From NCBI RefSeq assembly GCF_000027125.1, contig NC_017626.1: a stretch of 64,000 nt of DNA; one strand, written 5' to 3'. Shown one piece after another: positions 8,384 through 19,554 of this stretch. The stretch is from Escherichia coli 042. Its GTDB lineage: Bacteria; Pseudomonadota; Gammaproteobacteria; Enterobacterales; Enterobacteriaceae. Numbering within the stretch: the first letter of the stretch is position 1; each line of letters begins with the position of its first letter. The notes beneath the pieces are model-generated. The model searched no databases and was not told the DNA's origin. It saw only the letters and a program-made list of their open reading frames with translations. Both the position numbers and the translations under genes were made by a program.

Positions 8384-8530
8384 ATGGCAAAGCCGATCAT
8401 CACGCTCAATGGCCTAAAAATCGTCATTATGTTGGGAATGCTGGTCATTATTCTCTGCGGTATCCGTTTTGCCGCCGAGATCATCGTGCCGTTTATTCTC
8501 GCATTATTTATTGCTGTTATATATAACTAA
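8384..8530 (+). pseudogene. tqsA: tqsA 5' fragment (codons 1–45) ending at the island junction
   Basis: Encodes [45 protein letters not shown] then IYN-stop from island DNA; remainder of tqsA resumes at 19546. Confidence 0.8.
8512..8520. repeat. attL core (TGCTGTTAT)
   Basis: Identical 9-mer at 19546..19554; lies at tqsA codons 44–46. Confidence 0.7.
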
Positions 8531-8591
8531 TTTCACTTAACGCATTGATTTAATTAAATGATTTGCACTACAAAAAGTGCCATAAATCGCA

Positions 8592-8650
8592 AAATGACTA
8601 CACCAGTGACTACACCGTTCGGTGCACTGTATGAAACAACGTGGAACAAA
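8592..8650. promoter_or_regulatory. arm-type repeat block (GACTACACC x2), homologous to block near attR
   Basis: atGACTACACCagtGACTACACCg plus shared flanking motifs, matching 19391..19460. Confidence 0.5.
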
Positions 8651-8929
8651 TAGACACAAGAAATATACAGGCGGGTCATCTTTCCAGGGGGAAGCGCGCT
8701 AATTCATGAGGGGCGTTAATGTTGATATGGGGATCCCCATAACGGGGCTACCGGATTTTTTTTCCGGTTAACTGTTAATCAGGCTGGTGGGCTTTACCTG
8801 TTTTGTAGGAGTGGTCATTATGACCATTCAGACAATGACCTTAATCAGAACTTTTCGCTAAAAAATGACGTTGGTCACGTCGTCCGGAAAGCACAAAATC
8901 CCGTCAATTTTTAATTAACGGTTAAACCG

Positions 8930-8990
8930 TCTTTTGTCACGGCGTGTCACTGGTTGTCACTCTCCGTCACGGTATGTCGCTACTCGTTAA
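8930..8990. repeat. helically phased TGTCAC/GTCAC array (about 5 copies)
   Basis: tgtcacggcgtgtcactggttgtcactctccgtcacggtatgtcgc, ~10–11 bp spacing; at 3' end of the leftmost island gene. Confidence 0.45.
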
Positions 8991-9268
8991 CGCCGTAACC
9001 GCTCCGGCTTCTTCCAGTGGTACGTAATTTTCTCCGTTTCCCGATACAGTGCCACGCGGCGATTGTAGGCCAGCATTTCAAGAACGCGGATCCGTATGTT
9101 GCGCATATCCACATCATTAAGCTGGATACCATCACGGCGCATCACCTCAGCAACCACACGCGCGTAATTTTCGGCGGTCACGCTGTCCGGCTGCGTGGCC
9201 TGTTCGTCATGCTGCTGGCTGATTCCGGTAACGCGGCGGATTAATCCCAGTAGTTCGGCTTCTGTCAT
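8987..9268 (-). CDS. hypothetical protein (93 aa)
   Basis: ORF 8987..9466 trimmed to Met MTEAELLG; upstream part of the track ORF is read-through of the cos repeat. Confidence 0.45.
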   Translation of the reverse strand: MTEAELLGLIRRVTGISQQHDEQATQPDSVTAENYARVVAEVMRRDGIQLNDVDMRNIRIRVLEMLAYNRRVALYRETEKITYHWKKPERLRR

Positions 9269-9301
9269 TGTGCCCCCATCGCTCTGATAGTCTGGTGTCG
9301 T

Positions 9302-9365
9302 CGGGTCCTTCCTGGAATTATGGCCCGTTACGGGGCGGCGACCTCGCGCGTTTTCACTATTTATG
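9302..9365 (+). other. lambda-type cos site, copy A (cosN GGGCGGCGACCT at 9333..9344)
   Basis: cgggtccttcc...gttacg|GGGCGGCGACCT|cgcgcgttttcactatttatgaaaattttt matches remembered lambda cosQ–cosN–left-end sequence. Confidence 0.75.
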
Positions 9366-9547
9366 AAAATTTTTCGGGATCCATGTCCGGTTTCTCTGCA
9401 AGTTAACCATATGAAAAATATAAAAACATGCTTTCCATGAACCGGACATGCGCAAAAAACAGACACTAAAACCGGACATCGAACCAGTTAACCGAAAGTG
9501 TGCACAAATCACATGCATTGCTGCGAGTGATTAACAAGTTATCGGCT

Positions 9548-9982
9548 TTACTGTTCTGTATCGGCTGATTGCTCCATGCTGGCACGGCGAACGCTTATGG
9601 CATGACGCCACCCAGCCAGAAAGCCAGCCATTTTATTTCGTGCCTTGCTCACATCTTCCGGTGAATAGCCGTAAATCTGCAAACCTTCATCAAATCGATG
9701 TTCTGTTTCTTCACTGGAGTACTCGTCACGCTCAGATGAAAGCAGCCTGGCAAACATAATTTTTTCCAGCGCACTGGTTTCTACGTGATATCTGATGGTC
9801 TCAAGACGGCTTTTACCTGAAGACCAAAGCAATGTATGCCCGATGTGATAACCGCCAGACTTTCCGCGATCCGCATTAAGATACGGCATCCCCTGTTTGG
9901 TCCATGCGCGAATAGTGGTTCTGTTAACCTTGAAATGTTCAGCTATTTCCTGCTGACTTACAAAACAAGCTTTATCAATCAT
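9548..9982 (-). CDS. Nu1-like small terminase homolog (N-terminal HTH); possible packaging-redirecting protein
   Basis: 144 aa; VSQQEIAEHFKVNRTTIRAWTKQGMP resembles lambda Nu1 VNKKQLADIFGASIRTIQNWQEQGMP; flanked by cos copies. Confidence 0.7.
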   Translation of the reverse strand: MIDKACFVSQQEIAEHFKVNRTTIRAWTKQGMPYLNADRGKSGGYHIGHTLLWSSGKSRLETIRYHVETSALEKIMFARLLSSERDEYSSEETEHRFDEGLQIYGYSPEDVSKARNKMAGFLAGWRHAISVRRASMEQSADTEQ

Positions 9983-10050: not shown

Positions 10051-10114
10051 CATAAATAGCGAAAACCCGCGAGGTCGCCGCCCCGTAACGGGCCATAATT
10101 CCAGGAAGGACCCG
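10051..10114 (-). other. lambda-type cos site, copy B (cosN at 10072..10083), inverted relative to copy A
   Basis: Reverse complement is cgggtccttcctggaattatggcccgttacgGGGCGGCGACCTcgcgggttttcgctatttatg; ~90 bp upstream of the Nu1-like start. Confidence 0.75.
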
Positions 10115-10569: not shown

Positions 10570-10905
10570 TTATCGGGCCAGCGGCTGAACGGATACGCCG
10601 GAACCCGCAAAGGCGGCGCATTTTTTCGCATCGGTGTCGACGCTCTCAGGCCAGTTAACGGCGGCAATATTGAATATCCCCGTCTTGTAACACTGTGCTG
10701 ATTTCTGCTTTGACGTGTCCACAGGGTACGAGGTCAGATAAACAGCCTTGCCAGATTCCTGACCATCCCACGGCTTAAACTCGCCATTGTCTGCCAGCAT
10801 CAGCGGGGTAAATTCCTGAATAACGCCAGCATCAGCGGCAAAATGTACCAACGTCGTGGATACCTGCTGACTGCCTGCAAATAACTCAATGTATGGAGTG
10901 TCCAT
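10570..10905 (-). CDS. head decoration protein, lambda gpD-like
   Basis: 111 aa; TPLMLADNGEFKPWDG...KTGIFNIAAVNWPESVDTDAKKCAAFAGSGVSVQ parallels lambda gpD (110 aa). Confidence 0.72.
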   Translation of the reverse strand: MDTPYIELFAGSQQVSTTLVHFAADAGVIQEFTPLMLADNGEFKPWDGQESGKAVYLTSYPVDTSKQKSAQCYKTGIFNIAAVNWPESVDTDAKKCAAFAGSGVSVQPLAR

Positions 10906-10917
10906 AGAATCCCCCCG

Positions 10918-11973
10918 TTAACCAATTTTGACGGTAACAAATTTGCGAATATCTGCCGGTACCGGCTGCGGTGCACTGTGTGTCTGCACGTACTCAATCG
11001 CCGGATCGCCGTCCTCAATCCAGTTTTTCGGGTAAAACATGTTTTGTGTTGCGCCCGTTCTTACCGCTTCCTGATCCATTATCGCACCATAGGCCACCAG
11101 CCCTTTATTGTTGGTGTTACCCAGGACCAGCAAATCAGGCTCAAGGAAATATTTTTCGGTACCATCGCTGTCAGTGTATTTGCCGGAATAGACGATAAGG
11201 GCCAGATCACCAAGATAGCCTTTAAAGCTCACCACTTCGCCCAGGTTTTTACAGGCCAGTTCGGCGGCGGATTCTGAACCACGGGAAAGATCGTACAGCT
11301 CACGGAATTTTTTAAAGCTGCGTAATGTGCGCCATACCTCAGCGCCCATAATCATGACGTTTGCGGGGCAACCAGCCTGATCAGCATAAAGCTCGATGTC
11401 ATAGATTGGGTCGTGCATGTCTTTATCCTGCTCGGACCATTTTTTACCCTTGGCCTGCTCTATGATGCAGTTTTCCGGTATTTTCCAGTCGATTTCATAG
11501 CGTTCTATGCCTTCGCCCTCAATGATGTTTTTTCCGGTCGTTACCGCATTCACCGCCAGCCATTCCACGCGTGCCTTAATGGCGTTTATCTGGCGGCGCA
11601 TGTTGCCAGTAATCAGGCGCATACGGCGATAGGTAGGGTCGTTAAGCTGTGCCGGATCTTCTCCAGCCATGCGCATGATGGTTTTCGTTGGATCGATTTC
11701 GTGCTTTGGCTTCATGTAGCCAGGTTTGATTGTGCTGGTTTCGTACCCTTTATCGCGCTGAACCTGGCTACCCACCATAGGCGAACAAAACGCCGACATG
11801 GTGACTTCTTCAATGTCCAGGGTATCCAGCATGATGTTTTGCGTGCTGAATGTCGCCACGTTCGGGAAAAACAGCGTGGTAAACAGAGGGCTGAATTTAA
11901 AATCCGCAATATCCCCGCGATTCAGGTACATGAAAAGCTGGTTAGTGTTAAGTGCCGTTGCTTTGCCTGCCAT
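10918..11973 (-). CDS. major capsid protein, lambda gpE family
   Basis: 351 aa (lambda gpE is 341 aa); adjacent to gpD-like gene. Confidence 0.75.
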   Translation of the reverse strand: MAGKATALNTNQLFMYLNRGDIADFKFSPLFTTLFFPNVATFSTQNIMLDTLDIEEVTMSAFCSPMVGSQVQRDKGYETSTIKPGYMKPKHEIDPTKTIMRMAGEDPAQLNDPTYRRMRLITGNMRRQINAIKARVEWLAVNAVTTGKNIIEGEGIERYEIDWKIPENCIIEQAKGKKWSEQDKDMHDPIYDIELYADQAGCPANVMIMGAEVWRTLRSFKKFRELYDLSRGSESAAELACKNLGEVVSFKGYLGDLALIVYSGKYTDSDGTEKYFLEPDLLVLGNTNNKGLVAYGAIMDQEAVRTGATQNMFYPKNWIEDGDPAIEYVQTHSAPQPVPADIRKFVTVKIG

Positions 11974-13475: not shown

Positions 13476-13753
13476 AATTCCACCTCTCCGGTTTTAACGT
13501 TGATGGTTGTTACCTGTTCCGCTTCGGCAATCTCCCGTTCTGTCAGCGTGGCAAAGTTTGCCGCCGCCGTGGTCATGAATGCGCTTATCAGGTCGGGATG
13601 TTCCTTCGCGTATCCTTCCCGCGTGTGGCGGTCTATCGTTCTGATTGCCACCTTTAAGGTGTGCTCAGTCATGTCTAACGCTTTATATTTTGGCTCTGTT
13701 CTGTCTCTGCGTTTTTGGGTCATTTCTCGCAACCTCTCACTTTTTCGCCTCAC
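13472..13753 (-). CDS. hypothetical protein (93 aa)
   Basis: ORF overlapping ssb start by 4 nt; 5' end overlaps iteron region. Confidence 0.4.
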   Translation of the reverse strand: MRRKSERLREMTQKRRDRTEPKYKALDMTEHTLKVAIRTIDRHTREGYAKEHPDLISAFMTTAAANFATLTEREIAEAEQVTTINVKTGEVEL

Positions 13754-13925
13754 TTTTTCAAGCGTCTCACTTCGTCGCAGTTGGGATTTTCGGTTTTTCT
13801 ATGTGTGTGTTTCATAAGTATTTTTTTACCCCTCACTTTTGAGGATGTATACAGGTCGAAAAGTGAGGGAGAGCGGGCTAATTTTGGCCCTCTTTCTATC
13901 CCCCTCGCTTTTGCTCCTCACTTTT
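13733..13925. repeat. candidate replication origin: CCTCACTTTT iterons (about 6 direct, 1 inverted) with AT-rich spacer
   Basis: Iterons at about 13733, 13748, 13764, 13829, 13859 (inverted), 13901, 13916; directly 3' of the replication ATPase gene. Confidence 0.6.
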
Positions 13926-15324
13926 ATAGCGGCGCTACATCATCCCCATCGATACGAATAACCCCATCTTTTTCCAGCTTGTACAGCCAGCGCCGGAAGT
14001 TTTTCATTTCATACCCCAGCTTTTTCATGTCATCACGTAACAGCGGGATCGTGCACTTGTCGCCGTTCTGTGTGCGTGAACGGATGCACCCCCATAGCGC
14101 GGTATGGTTTTCCGTCTTGTTCCCTGCCTCCTCGATGCGCTCCAGTTCAACAGGAGGGCGCGGATCATCCACCACCACCAGCGACGTGATTAATTCACCG
14201 TCAGCGTCGGTAAAAAGCTCCACCACGCGTAAGTCATATGCGGCTTCTTTGAGTTCCTCCGCGTCCTTCATTTTGGTGCATGAGATAACCAGCGCTTCGC
14301 TTCCTGCGTCCTCCCTGCGTATCCGGTATTCAGCATCCAGCGAAGCACGAAATGCACTGGAACCGCGCGCGCCTTTCGTCTCATCCTTGCCGGAATGGTG
14401 AACCACCAGCACCGTGGCCCCTGTGCGTCGTTTCAGTTCGTCACAACCACGGATAAACGCCCCCATATCACGGGAATCATTTTCATCATTCCCACCAAAG
14501 CAACGCGCCAGCGTATCCAGAATAATCATGCGTACAGGTTTACCCGTTTCCCGCTCCACCTGACGGGCAGCGATAACCATTTCATCAACATCAAGCGGGG
14601 CAGCCGGAAAGATGGGGCGGTTTACCAGATACAGATTTTTCACCTGCTCATCGTGCACAACCTCCCAGGCTTTTACACGACGCGGAACACCTATACCGCC
14701 TTCACCAACCACATAGAGAACCGCACCATGTGCAACCCTGCGGCCTCCCCACTGGCGACCAGTGGCAACATGGCACGCCCACGATCCAGCAAGGAATGAT
14801 TTATAGGACCCGCTAGCCCCGTATATGCTGCATAGCGATACCGCCGGAATAATCCCCTTAACCACGTAATCCAGTTGCGTGTCGTATCCGGTAGATCCAA
14901 CGCTCATCGGTAGCGTGGTTTTTCGCTGGTGTTTTTTTTCTTCCGCCGGCTCTTTCCCGCGCACCCGTTCCAGGTATTCGCGCCAGTTCTCCCGCATATG
15001 GCTGTGCATCCCTTCGGGGTAATAATTCGCATCAGTTACACCCGCCGCCGCCAGCTTGTGCGCAATGGCATTAATATTTGATGGCCTGATGTGGCCTGCC
15101 TTGTACAGCCGGACACAATAGCGCCCCTCGTCGATGATTCTCAGGTCTGCCAGTTCATCCAGTTGATCATCAGCCAGCACAACGGGAGGCACATTATCGC
15201 CAGCCAGTCGCCCGTCCTGTTCCTGCCACTGTTTCGCATGTGCCCAGGCATCACTACCCGCAAAAATAATGACTTCGGTCATCTTGTCGTAAGGCTGTTT
15301 TTTTAAGTTCGGTGCGCTTTTCAT
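13924..15324 (-). CDS. replication protein, RecA-fold ATPase / helicase-like (primase-replicase candidate)
   Basis: 466 aa; Walker A GASGSYKS, Walker B MIILDTLARCFGG, VLVVHHSGK motif typical of phage/plasmid RepA or DnaB-like ATPases. Confidence 0.75.
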   Translation of the reverse strand: MKSAPNLKKQPYDKMTEVIIFAGSDAWAHAKQWQEQDGRLAGDNVPPVVLADDQLDELADLRIIDEGRYCVRLYKAGHIRPSNINAIAHKLAAAGVTDANYYPEGMHSHMRENWREYLERVRGKEPAEEKKHQRKTTLPMSVGSTGYDTQLDYVVKGIIPAVSLCSIYGASGSYKSFLAGSWACHVATGRQWGGRRVAHGAVLYVVGEGGIGVPRRVKAWEVVHDEQVKNLYLVNRPIFPAAPLDVDEMVIAARQVERETGKPVRMIILDTLARCFGGNDENDSRDMGAFIRGCDELKRRTGATVLVVHHSGKDETKGARGSSAFRASLDAEYRIRREDAGSEALVISCTKMKDAEELKEAAYDLRVVELFTDADGELITSLVVVDDPRPPVELERIEEAGNKTENHTALWGCIRSRTQNGDKCTIPLLRDDMKKLGYEMKNFRRWLYKLEKDGVIRIDGDDVAPL

Positions 15325-17585: not shown

Positions 17586-17774
17586 TTAATGAACTGCCTT
17601 GCAGCTATCCTTCCAGGCCAGAACCTCGGATAAAGACCAGCCAACGGAACGACCGCCAAGTTTACGACGTGATGGGAATTGTCCGGCCTTTTCCAGGCGG
17701 TAGCGACACGTACGGCTAAGGCCGGTTAGTTTTTCGCATTCTTTTTCACGTATAAACCGATCAGTGCTTAACAC
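17586..17774 (-). CDS. alpA: AlpA-family phage transcriptional regulator / excisionase-like
   Basis: 62 aa; LTGLSRTCRYRLEKAGQFPSRRKLGGRSVGWSLSEVLAW matches AlpA HTH pattern. Confidence 0.8.
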   Translation of the reverse strand: MLSTDRFIREKECEKLTGLSRTCRYRLEKAGQFPSRRKLGGRSVGWSLSEVLAWKDSCKAVH

Positions 17775-18140
17775 TATTGCCCCCCCTTTCGTTTCTTAAA
17801 GAGTCATCAGGTGTCTTATTGTGTCGTATTGTTCCCGCTAGAGTGATGAATGGCAAATATTGAGGATGTATGATTTACAGAAAATGAAACAGTAAGAATA
17901 AAATCTTTTAAATTCATGTTAATACAAAGGCATAAAATATTGTTTCATGCCTTTTTTCTCGCTCTTTAAAGAGTGATTCGCTAGTGTATAAAAAACCAGT
18001 GACACATTAAAAATCAGCCACTTATAAATCTGTATGCTTTTTCGCCTCTTGTTCGTGGTTGTTCCACATTGTTGCTCATTGTTGCACGTTGTATCTGTTC
18101 GCATATACAGTATGCGCATACTGAAAAAACACGAAAAAAA

Positions 18141-19370
18141 TTATTTTCTTCTGGCTACTGGTAGCGTGGTTACGTTTTCATGTGTTCCCGCCAGTATCCC
18201 TAACCGCTCCGTCCACATATCCAGCGCATTGCGTTTAGCATCCAGATAACGGGAATGATTATAAACTCGCTGCATTCCTGGCATCTGGTGGCCTGTAAGC
18301 TGCTCCACGACATGCGGATCAACGCCTAAATCGTTCAGCATGGTTGTAAAGGTGCGCCGGATGTCATGCAGTGACCAGTGAGGATGATTAAGCCTCCTGT
18401 GCGCTAATCTTCCATACTGCGATACGCTGGCCTCCTGTTTCACTTCCCCCAGCAATAAGCCCGTGTGCCTGTTCTGCTCCACCAGCTGCGTGACGAACGG
18501 CAGGATCGCTTCCGGTATGGGCCGGAATATTGCGACCTTCGTTTTGCTGTGCTCCTTCGGAACGGTCCATAGCATTTCCGTAAAATCCCACTCCCCGATC
18601 TCCGATAACCTCAGTTCTACCGTTCTGGCTCCGAAGACAATCAGGAGGCGGATTAACGCGACGTAGTAAGGGGAGAATATTTTTTTGTCCAGTGCCTGCA
18701 ATAATTCGCCAAGTTCTTTGTTACTTAAGACACGTTCGCTTATATCCGGTTTTTTCCCAACGTCCGCCACGTTCAGATCGTCCAGAACGTTGCTGATTGC
18801 ATAGCGCCGCCTACGGCAGAACTTAAGCGCCTGTTTGCACGCCTGTAGCACGAATCCGGCAGTAACAGGCGTTCGCTTTGCCACCTGGTCAAAACAGGCC
18901 AGCCAGTGCCGTAGCTCGCATTTATCCAGCGGCATAGCACCAATCTGCTGTATTACGTGATTATTAAGTCGCCTTTTCAGGGCGATATAATCCACGCGGT
19001 TTTCCTTTACGTAATACTCAAGCCAGTAGGTGAGCGCATCGCCAACCGTTACCGGCTTTAACGCTTCCTGTACGGTGTAATTAAGCTCATGACGTGGATT
19101 TTTCCCCTCTGCCAGCCATGCGCGACACTGGGCGGCTTTTTCCCTGGCTGATTTCAGGCTCAGATCAGGATAACTTCCCAGCTTAATGCGTTCGGGTCGT
19201 GTCTCCCTTCCCGTTCCGGCCCTGTATGTGAAATACCAGGTCAATTTCCCTGATGTTAAATATTTCACGCTCAGGTTTCCGCCATCACTATAAAACGTGT
19301 TTTTCTCCGCTGGCTTACCATGAAGTTTCCTTAGCAAGGTATCGCTCAGTTTGTTCATTGCTCTGCTCAC
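18141..19370 (-). CDS. int: tyrosine site-specific integrase (P4-like, N-terminal arm-binding domain)
   Basis: 409 aa; C-terminal HDIRRT...GHQ...VYNHSRY catalytic motifs; adjacent to attR. Confidence 0.9.
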   Translation of the reverse strand: MSRAMNKLSDTLLRKLHGKPAEKNTFYSDGGNLSVKYLTSGKLTWYFTYRAGTGRETRPERIKLGSYPDLSLKSAREKAAQCRAWLAEGKNPRHELNYTVQEALKPVTVGDALTYWLEYYVKENRVDYIALKRRLNNHVIQQIGAMPLDKCELRHWLACFDQVAKRTPVTAGFVLQACKQALKFCRRRRYAISNVLDDLNVADVGKKPDISERVLSNKELGELLQALDKKIFSPYYVALIRLLIVFGARTVELRLSEIGEWDFTEMLWTVPKEHSKTKVAIFRPIPEAILPFVTQLVEQNRHTGLLLGEVKQEASVSQYGRLAHRRLNHPHWSLHDIRRTFTTMLNDLGVDPHVVEQLTGHQMPGMQRVYNHSRYLDAKRNALDMWTERLGILAGTHENVTTLPVARRK

Positions 19371-19390: not shown

Positions 19391-19460
19391 AAAAGTGACT
19401 ACACCAGTGACTACACCGATCGTTGCACAAAGGGCTACAACGTGAAACAAGCTGGAACAA
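19391..19460. promoter_or_regulatory. arm-type repeat block (GACTACACC x2) between int start and attR
   Basis: gtGACTACACCagtGACTACACCg at 19397..19417, homologous to 8592..8650. Confidence 0.5.
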
Positions 19461-19545
19461 GGAAAATCACAAATCTGTTGATAATCAAAAACATAATGCA
19501 CAGCCTGAAACATTATGAAACAGCAAAAAACACCAAATGATAAAA

Positions 19546-19554
19546 TGCTGTTAT
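19546..19554. repeat. attR core (TGCTGTTAT)
   Basis: Identical to 8512..8520; in-frame stops TGA TAA immediately upstream. Confidence 0.7.

Follow-up and report, generated by a model that had tools for sequence, protein, structure and literature searches.

What is the purpose of a row of evenly spaced TGTCAC hexamers at the left end of a mobile island, and for which protein could such a row serve as a binding site? The question is raised by positions 8930–8990 (plus strand, tcttTTGTCACggcgTGTCACtggtTGTCACtctccGTCACggtaTGTCGCtactcgTTA) of a 64,000-nucleotide stretch of Escherichia coli 042 (contig NC_017626.1; the whole stretch is hereafter called the window), which contains an 11-kb island inserted within the tqsA gene and bounded by the 9-bp core TGCTGTTAT, present at 8512–8520 (attL) and repeated at 19546–19554. 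The island is a cos-type phage-inducible chromosomal island (PICI) of the EcCICFT073 family and a close relative of EcCICFT073, the model cos-type PICI of E. coli; lambdoid phages are the helpers of this family. An earlier note on this DNA had described about five TGTCAC/GTCAC motifs lying roughly one helical turn apart between attL and the first island gene, and had proposed cooperative binding of a protein, naming as examples a cosB-like site for the Nu1-like protein and arm sites for the integrase or excisionase. According to the analysis presented here, the array is real, conserved as a module and present on an all-or-none basis; its cores are under constraint, and it occurs independently of all variable modules of the island. 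It appears to be neither cosB, nor a set of sites for the integrase or AlpA of the island, nor the iterons of the island origin. It is very probably a functional site of cooperative protein binding, and the reading that we tentatively prefer is that of an orphan, portable landing pad of the iteron type for a trans-acting protein, most likely encoded by the helper and acting late at the cos-proximal end of the excised island.

The description given in the earlier note was accurate, and the spacing of the motifs was found to be exact. GTCAC starts at 8936, 8946, 8956 and 8966, i.e., in exact 10-bp steps, and a fifth unit in the same phase, GTCGC, starts at 8976. The whole array of five direct repeats with a 10-bp period occupies 8935–8980 on the plus strand (TGTCAC ggcg TGTCAC tggt TGTCAC tctcc GTCAC ggta TGTCGC) and consists of three TGTCAC units (8935–8940, 8945–8950 and 8955–8960), one CGTCAC unit (8965–8970) and one TGTCGC unit (8975–8980), all in the plus orientation. 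It lies, as had been stated, between the attL core and the island genes, ending 6 bp from the stop codon of orf94 (8987–9268, minus strand), the last gene of the island operon. The distance from the array to the core is 416–468 bp, on a single arm and with no counterpart near attR, and the distance to cosN is 353–409 bp, on the cosQ side. GTCAC is not enriched across the 64-kb window (92 copies against 97 expected), and four copies in exact 10-bp phase are expected only about 3 × 10−8 times per window; the only other 5-mer recurring four times at 10-bp steps was TTGTT, at 18049, where it probably forms a regulatory array of its own. Both palindromes mentioned together with the array are present, namely, tatggggatccccata (16 bp) at 8726–8741 and ggtcattatgacc (13 bp) at 8813–8825, and the array is indeed distinct from the origin iterons, which have the sequence CCTCACTTTT and are located at 13730–13925.

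The segment was matched in 266 of 5426 complete E. coli genomes. An array-blind scan anchored on the 3' end of orf94 yielded 69 islands with enough left flank, each of which contained either four to five intact units or none at all, and decayed arrays of two or three units were absent from these 69 islands; the islands are closely related, and the counts are not independent events. Comparison of 12 array variants revealed variability at 7 of 17 spacer positions versus 1 of 29 core positions (Fisher p = 0.002), the single variable core position being the A/G of unit 5. The core of unit 1 was invariant in 12/12 variants, and the C preceding the in-phase GTCAC core of unit 4 was constant in all of them. 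Unit 5, degenerate in the window, is a perfect TGTCAC in the L005, L012, L057 and L112 lineages and is missing in the 042 and L004 types, where a different sequence has been inserted between unit 4 and orf94. The L141/L142 lineage has lost exactly one 10-bp unit with the phase kept, unit 2 and its spacer being precisely deleted. Within the array of the window, the spacers have diverged from one another (ggcg, tggt, tctcc and ggta), whereas the cores have remained identical, which is the pattern of a binding array and not that of recent slippage. Consequently, the general idea of a cooperative protein-binding array is upheld, albeit indirectly, by the contrast between cores and spacers, the all-or-none occurrence and the loss of a single unit, whereas the two examples proposed for it, cosB and the Int/AlpA sites, are not. 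Judging from these comparisons, the array looks selectively maintained.

The array is also a portable module that passes between islands as a cassette. L005-type islands have in common with the window only the array and its leader ACCGTCTTTT (8925–8934, plus strand); the sequence on the left is unrelated, and both flanks are unrelated or replaced. The leader is conserved and travels with the array in all flank types; it is also kept in islands without the array, and in the window a small plus-strand hairpin (8918–8930) takes its 3' arm and T-run from the leader. Islands with the array have been inserted at tqsA, clpS/cspD and tRNA-Pro, and the arm motif differs among these three sites. The array was found together with at least three integrase types, with at least four divergent AlpA types (identical AlpA proteins occurring both with and without it), and with Rep proteins of three types, which have the iterons GTCTACC, CC(T)CACTTTT (CCCACTTTT) and TGTTCACC, the last of them identical to the iteron that the P4 annotation calls type 1. 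It likewise accompanies the 144-aa Rpp, a 146-aa helix-turn-helix protein with different cos-side repeats, or a 180-aa TerS, and, depending on the island, it is about 350 to 800 bp away from cos. The iteron sets of the three Rep types were seen at L001 20780–21100, L002 18880–19200, L003 17660–17800, L004 18330–18640 and L005 18240–18470. EcCICFT073 does not contain the array, and its cos and R-like repeats are identical to those of the window.

A search for a binder encoded by the islands themselves gave no protein that tracks the array: the open reading frames (ORFs) of 50 islands (23 with the array and 27 without it) were clustered at 30–95% identity, and no cluster followed its distribution. 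The best association was with the RepA-helicase cluster (13/16 versus 10/34, p = 0.0008), which was neither necessary nor sufficient; in terms of Rep type, the array occurred with the RepA-helicase type in 15/21 versus 8/29 islands (p = 0.004, relatedness not corrected), and all three Rep types still carried it. Since no variable island protein co-varies with the array, a putative binder would have to be sought among the island proteins that are universally conserved or, with greater likelihood, among factors that a helper phage, another element or the host provides in trans. The product of orf94 (93 aa, PHROG 1561, function not assigned), which is found in every island, was considered as a binder and rejected: it has no Pfam match, its model is all-helical (pLDDT 70) with no fold match at E < 1, and it is approximately 90% identical in islands with and without the array. 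A tblastn search with orf94 against 50,697 phage records gave no match. Among host systems, matS/MatP was rejected: GTCAC fits a half-site of matS, but the array consists of direct repeats, and the only inverted pair nearby is wrongly spaced. PhoB, CreB and ArcA boxes were likewise rejected; their motifs are similar, but they have an 11-bp period and AT-rich spacers. A literature search for TGTCAC in connection with repeats, iterons or phage returned nothing relevant.

The proximity of the array to the packaging corner of the island, the binding of TerS proteins to repeated sites and the position of some unrelated TGTCAC arrays just upstream of terS genes would fit a cosB-like site for the Nu1-like protein (the Rpp homologue, 144 aa, 9548–9982) or for an Rpp–TerS complex. 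The arrangement of the packaging region makes this extremely unlikely. The lambda cohesive-end sequence GGGCGGCGACCT occurs in the island twice, at 9333–9344 (plus strand), between orf94 and rpp, and at 10072–10083 (minus strand). In lambda and in the published work on EcCICFT073, cosB lies on the opposite side of cosN from cosQ, whereas the array lies on the cosQ side, at a distance that varies between islands as given above and not within the expected 50–200 bp or so on the cosB side. The cosB side, up to the 3' end of rpp, is already occupied by CATGTCCGGTT (inverted, 9382–9392), AACCGGACATG (9440–9450) and AACCGGACAT (9470–9479) with an AT-rich stretch between them; these are three R-like copies of AACCGGACAT(G), the first of them inverted. 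This three-repeat layout resembles the lambda order R3-I1-R2-R1, and the repeats at 9382–9479 are, by their sequence and position, good candidates for the R elements of a PICI cosB recognized by Rpp–TerS. Moreover, the array is independent of the Rpp, TerS and cos type, since it occurs in L005, with a different cos and different repeats, and in L004, with TerS instead of Rpp, and it is absent from EcCICFT073, yet published work on that island showed packaging via Rpp and cosB and RppA-dependent transfer of cloned cos1. The inverted copy of the cohesive-end sequence at 10072–10083 is directly upstream of the rpp start codon and belongs to a 65-bp duplicate of the cosQ–cosN region in the lambda cos–Nu1 arrangement, with only about 70 bp of unrelated ‘cosB’ (to 9982); it is probably one of the two published EcCICFT073 cos sites.

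It is also very unlikely that the array represents arm-type sites for the integrase of the island or sites for AlpA acting as an excisionase, although tandem direct repeats at 10 bp are the architecture of both arm-type sites and the sites of recombination directionality factors (RDFs), and nine bases, GTCACTGGT, are common to the array and the doubled arm motif in inverted orientation. The array is on one arm only, at 416–468 bp from the core against the roughly 150 bp expected, and both arms already have repeats of their own. The doubled 12-bp motif TGACTACACC-nn-TGACTACACC was found at 8595–8616 (about 90 bp from the core, int-distal) and at 19396–19417 (about 144 bp, int side) and likely represents the integrase arm sites, as suggested by the doubled 12-bp arm repeats at +75 and −134 in the annotated P4 record and the doubled motif at −81 and +132 in helper-embedded PICIs (PMC10111431). 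Beside the doubled motifs, RAACAA triplets at steps of about 10 bp are present in both arms (8634–8659 and 19445–19472), and a TTGTTS array (TTGTTC/TTGTTG, four to five units, 10 bp) is located at 18049–18098, between int and alpA and upstream of alpA. EcCICFT073, whose AlpA is nearly identical, also has the TTGTTS array, and these RAACAA/TTGTTS arrays appear to be natural candidates for AlpA sites (or Int regulatory/RDF sites). The TGTCAC array, in contrast, does not co-vary with Int or AlpA type and is absent from EcCICFT073 despite the nearly identical AlpA and an Int of the same length with a neighbouring accession. As to the arms of other islands, the arm motif is TTAACTACACC in the 042-type island and GTRTAGCTWA in L004 and L005, and the att-arm triplets of the 042-type island include three perfect GAACAA. 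Three copies of AAACA adjoin the attR core of the window (19508–19532).

The occurrence of similar arrays elsewhere was assessed by scanning for TGTCAC-N4-TGTCAC-N4-TGTCAC-N5-GTCAC, which gave at least 120 stretches in viral contigs, compared with 4 and 5 for two permuted hexamers in the same layout, and 65 occurrences in 100,044 species genomes from many phyla. The viral matches listed represented at least 33 unrelated flank families. Nine of the 33 families had the array inside phage replication-initiator genes (f3, f10, f11, f17, f21, f26, f28, f31 and f32), a replication-initiation gene being the usual place for a phage origin; in at least five, it directly separated terS or HNH from the gene of an ArpU/RinA-like regulator or from another gene; and a few viral arrays were beside genes that, judged from their sequences, are integrase-like (333–425 aa). 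The setting between an ArpU/RinA-like late regulator gene (PHROG 36) and terS or HNH was observed in four unrelated phage families, f12, f14, f15 and f18 (L035, L037, L039 and L054), in which the array could be a late promoter/activator site or a packaging site. The f0 family comprised 51 GC-rich contigs of about 10 kb (L013, L018–L024 and others) with 4–9 copies of TGTCACCGTT/TGTCACTGAA exactly between the terL stop codon and the portal gene, the copy number differing between close relatives. Phased TGTCAC arrays thus appear, from their sequence contexts, to be a recurrent binding-array design of mobile elements used in several functional settings, and do not by themselves assign a function.

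The frequency of replication-initiator genes among these contexts, which form the largest class of unrelated TGTCAC arrays (9/33), bears on a further explanation, according to which the array is a replication element, either a second, crr-like site for the island Rep or an additional origin at which an initiator of the helper phage would start replication. Its position relative to attP and the operon end is that of crr in P4, a short AT-rich run, caatttttaattaa, adjoins it, and the weak association with the RepA-helicase type given above points in the same direction. This explanation was nevertheless considered rather improbable: the iterons of the island itself are CCTCACTTTT, all three Rep/iteron types occur with the array, L004 uses the P4-type iterons TGTTCACC and has none of them in its left end, and TGTCAC iterons were not found for any E. 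coli phage initiator. The island Rep iterons were rejected as an identity for the array for the same reasons, their motif being different and islands of three Rep/iteron types carrying it. Improbable as well is a transcriptional boundary, at which a roadblock protein, or the sequence as such, would help to keep rightward read-through from the host gene (tqsA in the window and phoQ in CFT073) out of the end of the leftward operon. The array does have the stop codon of the last gene on one side and, on the other, two terminator-like hairpins of the leftward operon (minus strand), one with a T-run just beyond the array (8901–8921) and one formed by GACGTGACCAACGTC with ATTTTTT (8867–8881); islands without the array have, in the corresponding region, a dense series of hairpins with T-runs facing incoming host transcription; and the arrays of other viral families often abut the stop codon of the upstream gene. 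However, the array itself contains neither a promoter nor a strong terminator, RNA folding over it was not notable (z = −1.96 and −0.45), with no Rfam family, and its base composition is not rut-like. In addition, a boundary of this kind requires a putative roadblock protein, just as the landing pad requires a putative binder. No ORF of at least 40 aa runs through the array.

The array could also be a hitchhiking relic that has no function at present, either a short tandem repeat or a remnant of captured phage DNA, retained because the sequences on its two sides, orf94 (at its 3' end) and the att arm, are conserved anchors for recombination; this possibility was regarded as unlikely. The 190-bp segment that holds it (8798–8985) is a mosaic region that varies between islands and is replaced in CFT073; within it, the stretch 8842–8901 has about 77% identity over 60 bp to L271 701–760, a sequence that in lambdoid phages, Stx-converting ones among them, directly follows the stop codon of lysozyme gene R; this suggests that the left end of the island contains captured DNA from a phage late region. 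The spacers are largely conserved too, and many islands do without the array. A relic is, however, difficult to reconcile with spacers that have diverged next to identical cores, the opposite of what recent slippage would give, with the lack of any decayed copy among the 69 informative islands, with between-island substitutions that avoid the cores (p = 0.002), and with retention of the array where both flanks have been replaced.

Several observations on the left end concern the sequence around the array. The same segment, 8798–8985 (188 bp), contains 10 copies of GTCA/TGAC versus 1.4 expected, six of them outside the array; both halves of the palindrome GGTCATTATGACC are among the latter, and in the 042-type island the array is followed by GGTGATTATCACC, a palindrome of a similar kind. 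The left ends of array-less islands (L002 14255–14521, which corresponds to CFT073, and L134–L204) are built of tandem units consisting of a hairpin with an A/T loop, a T-run, about 10 bp and ATATCAAC-NN-GTTA. The stems of these hairpins differ yet remain palindromic, the last portion of the unit fits the integration host factor (IHF) consensus WATCAANNNNTTR, the units number up to five or more per island, and the last one and the stop codon of orf94 overlap; possibly the units unite IHF sites with terminators that stop read-through from the host. Iterons of the lambda O type were considered for these islands, as their CCTCAAATTGAGG-type palindromes resemble lambda iterons, and were rejected, the variable palindromic stems and T-runs being better explained by terminator hairpins. 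A Chi site, GCTGGTGG, is present on the plus strand at 8783–8790, about 550 bp from the cos end, in an orientation that can be read by RecBCD entering at the free end to the left of cosN. Chi sites in the same orientation within 700 bp to the left of orf94 were found in 48 of 69 related islands, compared with about 22% predicted from the density in the island body.

Returning to the landing pad, we infer from the phase and the constraint on the cores that a small DNA-binding domain, of the winged-helix or the arm type, may occupy the array as four to five protomers in head-to-tail order, one per turn and on one face of the DNA. The protein would not be Int, AlpA, Rep or Rpp/TerS, and because it is not one of the lineage-specific specificity proteins of the island, it would act in trans, most likely from the helper phage or from another co-resident element. 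PICIs would exchange the landing pad by recombination at the cos-proximal, int-distal end. The complex would form on the excised, replicating island, close to where the late operon stops and some 350 bp from the cos end, and there it might modulate a late, helper-dependent step, namely, concatemer replication/packaging or titration of a helper protein, and not integration or excision. A related but unlikely version is that the array mimics a binding site of the helper phage and is traded among PICIs, so that the five sites on each replicating copy would hijack or titrate a helper protein. The candidates for the imitated site are a ‘super P' arm’ of the arm-type sites of lambda-family integrases, which are tandem GTCAC motifs at 10 bp, and the iterons of a helper replication initiator.

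Several points weigh against the landing pad as we propose it. We know of no E. coli phage or host protein that recognizes phased TGTCAC. About half of the sampled relatives, as well as EcCICFT073, have no array, and it is therefore dispensable for the basic life cycle. Part of its conservation reflects recent common descent, the spacers also being fairly conserved between islands. The contexts of TGTCAC arrays elsewhere are heterogeneous and do not point to one function. When the segment was compared by BLAST with 50,697 phage records, the weak 60-bp match outside the array was the sole result, although BLAST is blind to arrays with other spacers. Finally, there is no promoter-like site near the array, unlike the cox boxes of P4, which are located at a promoter; no sigma-70-like site was predicted in 8450–9600 on either strand.

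Nearly all genes of the island are transcribed leftward: int (18141–19370), alpA (17586–17774), a Rep of the RepA-helicase type (13924–15324) followed by the origin iterons, the major capsid protein gene (10918–11973) and the decoration protein gene (10570–10905), then rpp and orf94. The tqsA gene, encoding an exporter of autoinducer-2 (AI-2), is split by the island into 8384–8530 and a part from 19555 onward, and in the NCBI annotation of identical strains both halves are pseudogene fragments.

The array is of interest in the context of satellite–helper relations, as virulence and defence genes are disseminated at high frequency by the PICIs of E. coli. The published cis elements found for this family (att, ori, cos and cosB) each pair with a protein encoded by the island, whereas the array pairs with none of those proteins. 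If a protein of the helper phage or the host binds it, satellite and helper would meet at an additional point, possibly a determinant of helper range or a DNA decoy, and the array would provide a simple handle for engineering PICI-based delivery vectors. If it is a mimic of a helper site, it would add a cis-acting, DNA-based layer to satellite–helper piracy beside the protein-based Rpp mechanism. Should nothing bind it, a false annotation of cosB or arm sites has been removed, and the actual candidates for these sites have been indicated.

The array was also compared with known packaging and recombination sites. With the R elements of lambda cosB and the cosB of EcCICFT073 cos1 it shares repeated (candidate) protein-binding elements near cos and, in the latter case, the island family; however, those elements are on the other side of cosN, and EcCICFT073 has no array. 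The P4 attP arm repeats and the doubled motif of helper-embedded PICIs (PMC10111431) belong to the same P4-like integrase/satellite family and are likewise short repeats near att, but they are doubled 12-bp sequences at about 75–145 bp on both arms, whereas the array has a 10-bp period, five units and a position more than 400 bp away on one side. The arm-type Int sites of lambda attP (P1, P2 and P'1–P'3; MAGTCACTAT) have the GTCAC core in common with the array, and the P' arm contains three tandem sites at 10–11 bp (GGTCACTAT, CAGTCAAAAT and AAATCATTAT), similar to its phasing. The units of the array match this consensus at 5, 6, 7, 7 and 7 of 10 positions, compared with 8–10 for the five lambda sites; unlike in lambda attP, no core-type site is adjacent, sites fitting the IHF consensus follow the array only in the 042 and L004 types, and the integrase of the island is P4-like with a different arm motif.

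Iterons within phage initiator genes, such as those of lambda O and the nine viral families, offer a further comparison: the nine families have the same TGTCAC motif and 10-bp period, but the array of the window is neither in nor beside a replication gene. The crr of P4 has the same position as the array, next to attP on the non-int side and at the operon end; the crr iteron is, however, that of the P4 origin, whereas the array differs from the iterons of its island. The closest precedent for a row of repeats bound by a helper protein in a satellite is offered by the P4 ‘ori type 2 repeats’ of the annotated record, three tandem 10-bp copies of CAYTTAAAGY at 9176–9205. Both rows consist of at least three short direct repeats at one helical turn and are carried by a satellite. 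The P4 repeats are the cox boxes at which Cox of the helper P2 activates the P4 promoter PLL, and P2 Cox is a small, helper-encoded winged-helix protein. RDFs of the winged-helix type bind as one protomer per 10 bp. The two arrays differ in motif (TTAAAG versus TGTCAC), in the number of units (three versus five) and in location, the P4 repeats being at a promoter in the regulatory/origin region and the array of the window at the far end of the operon.

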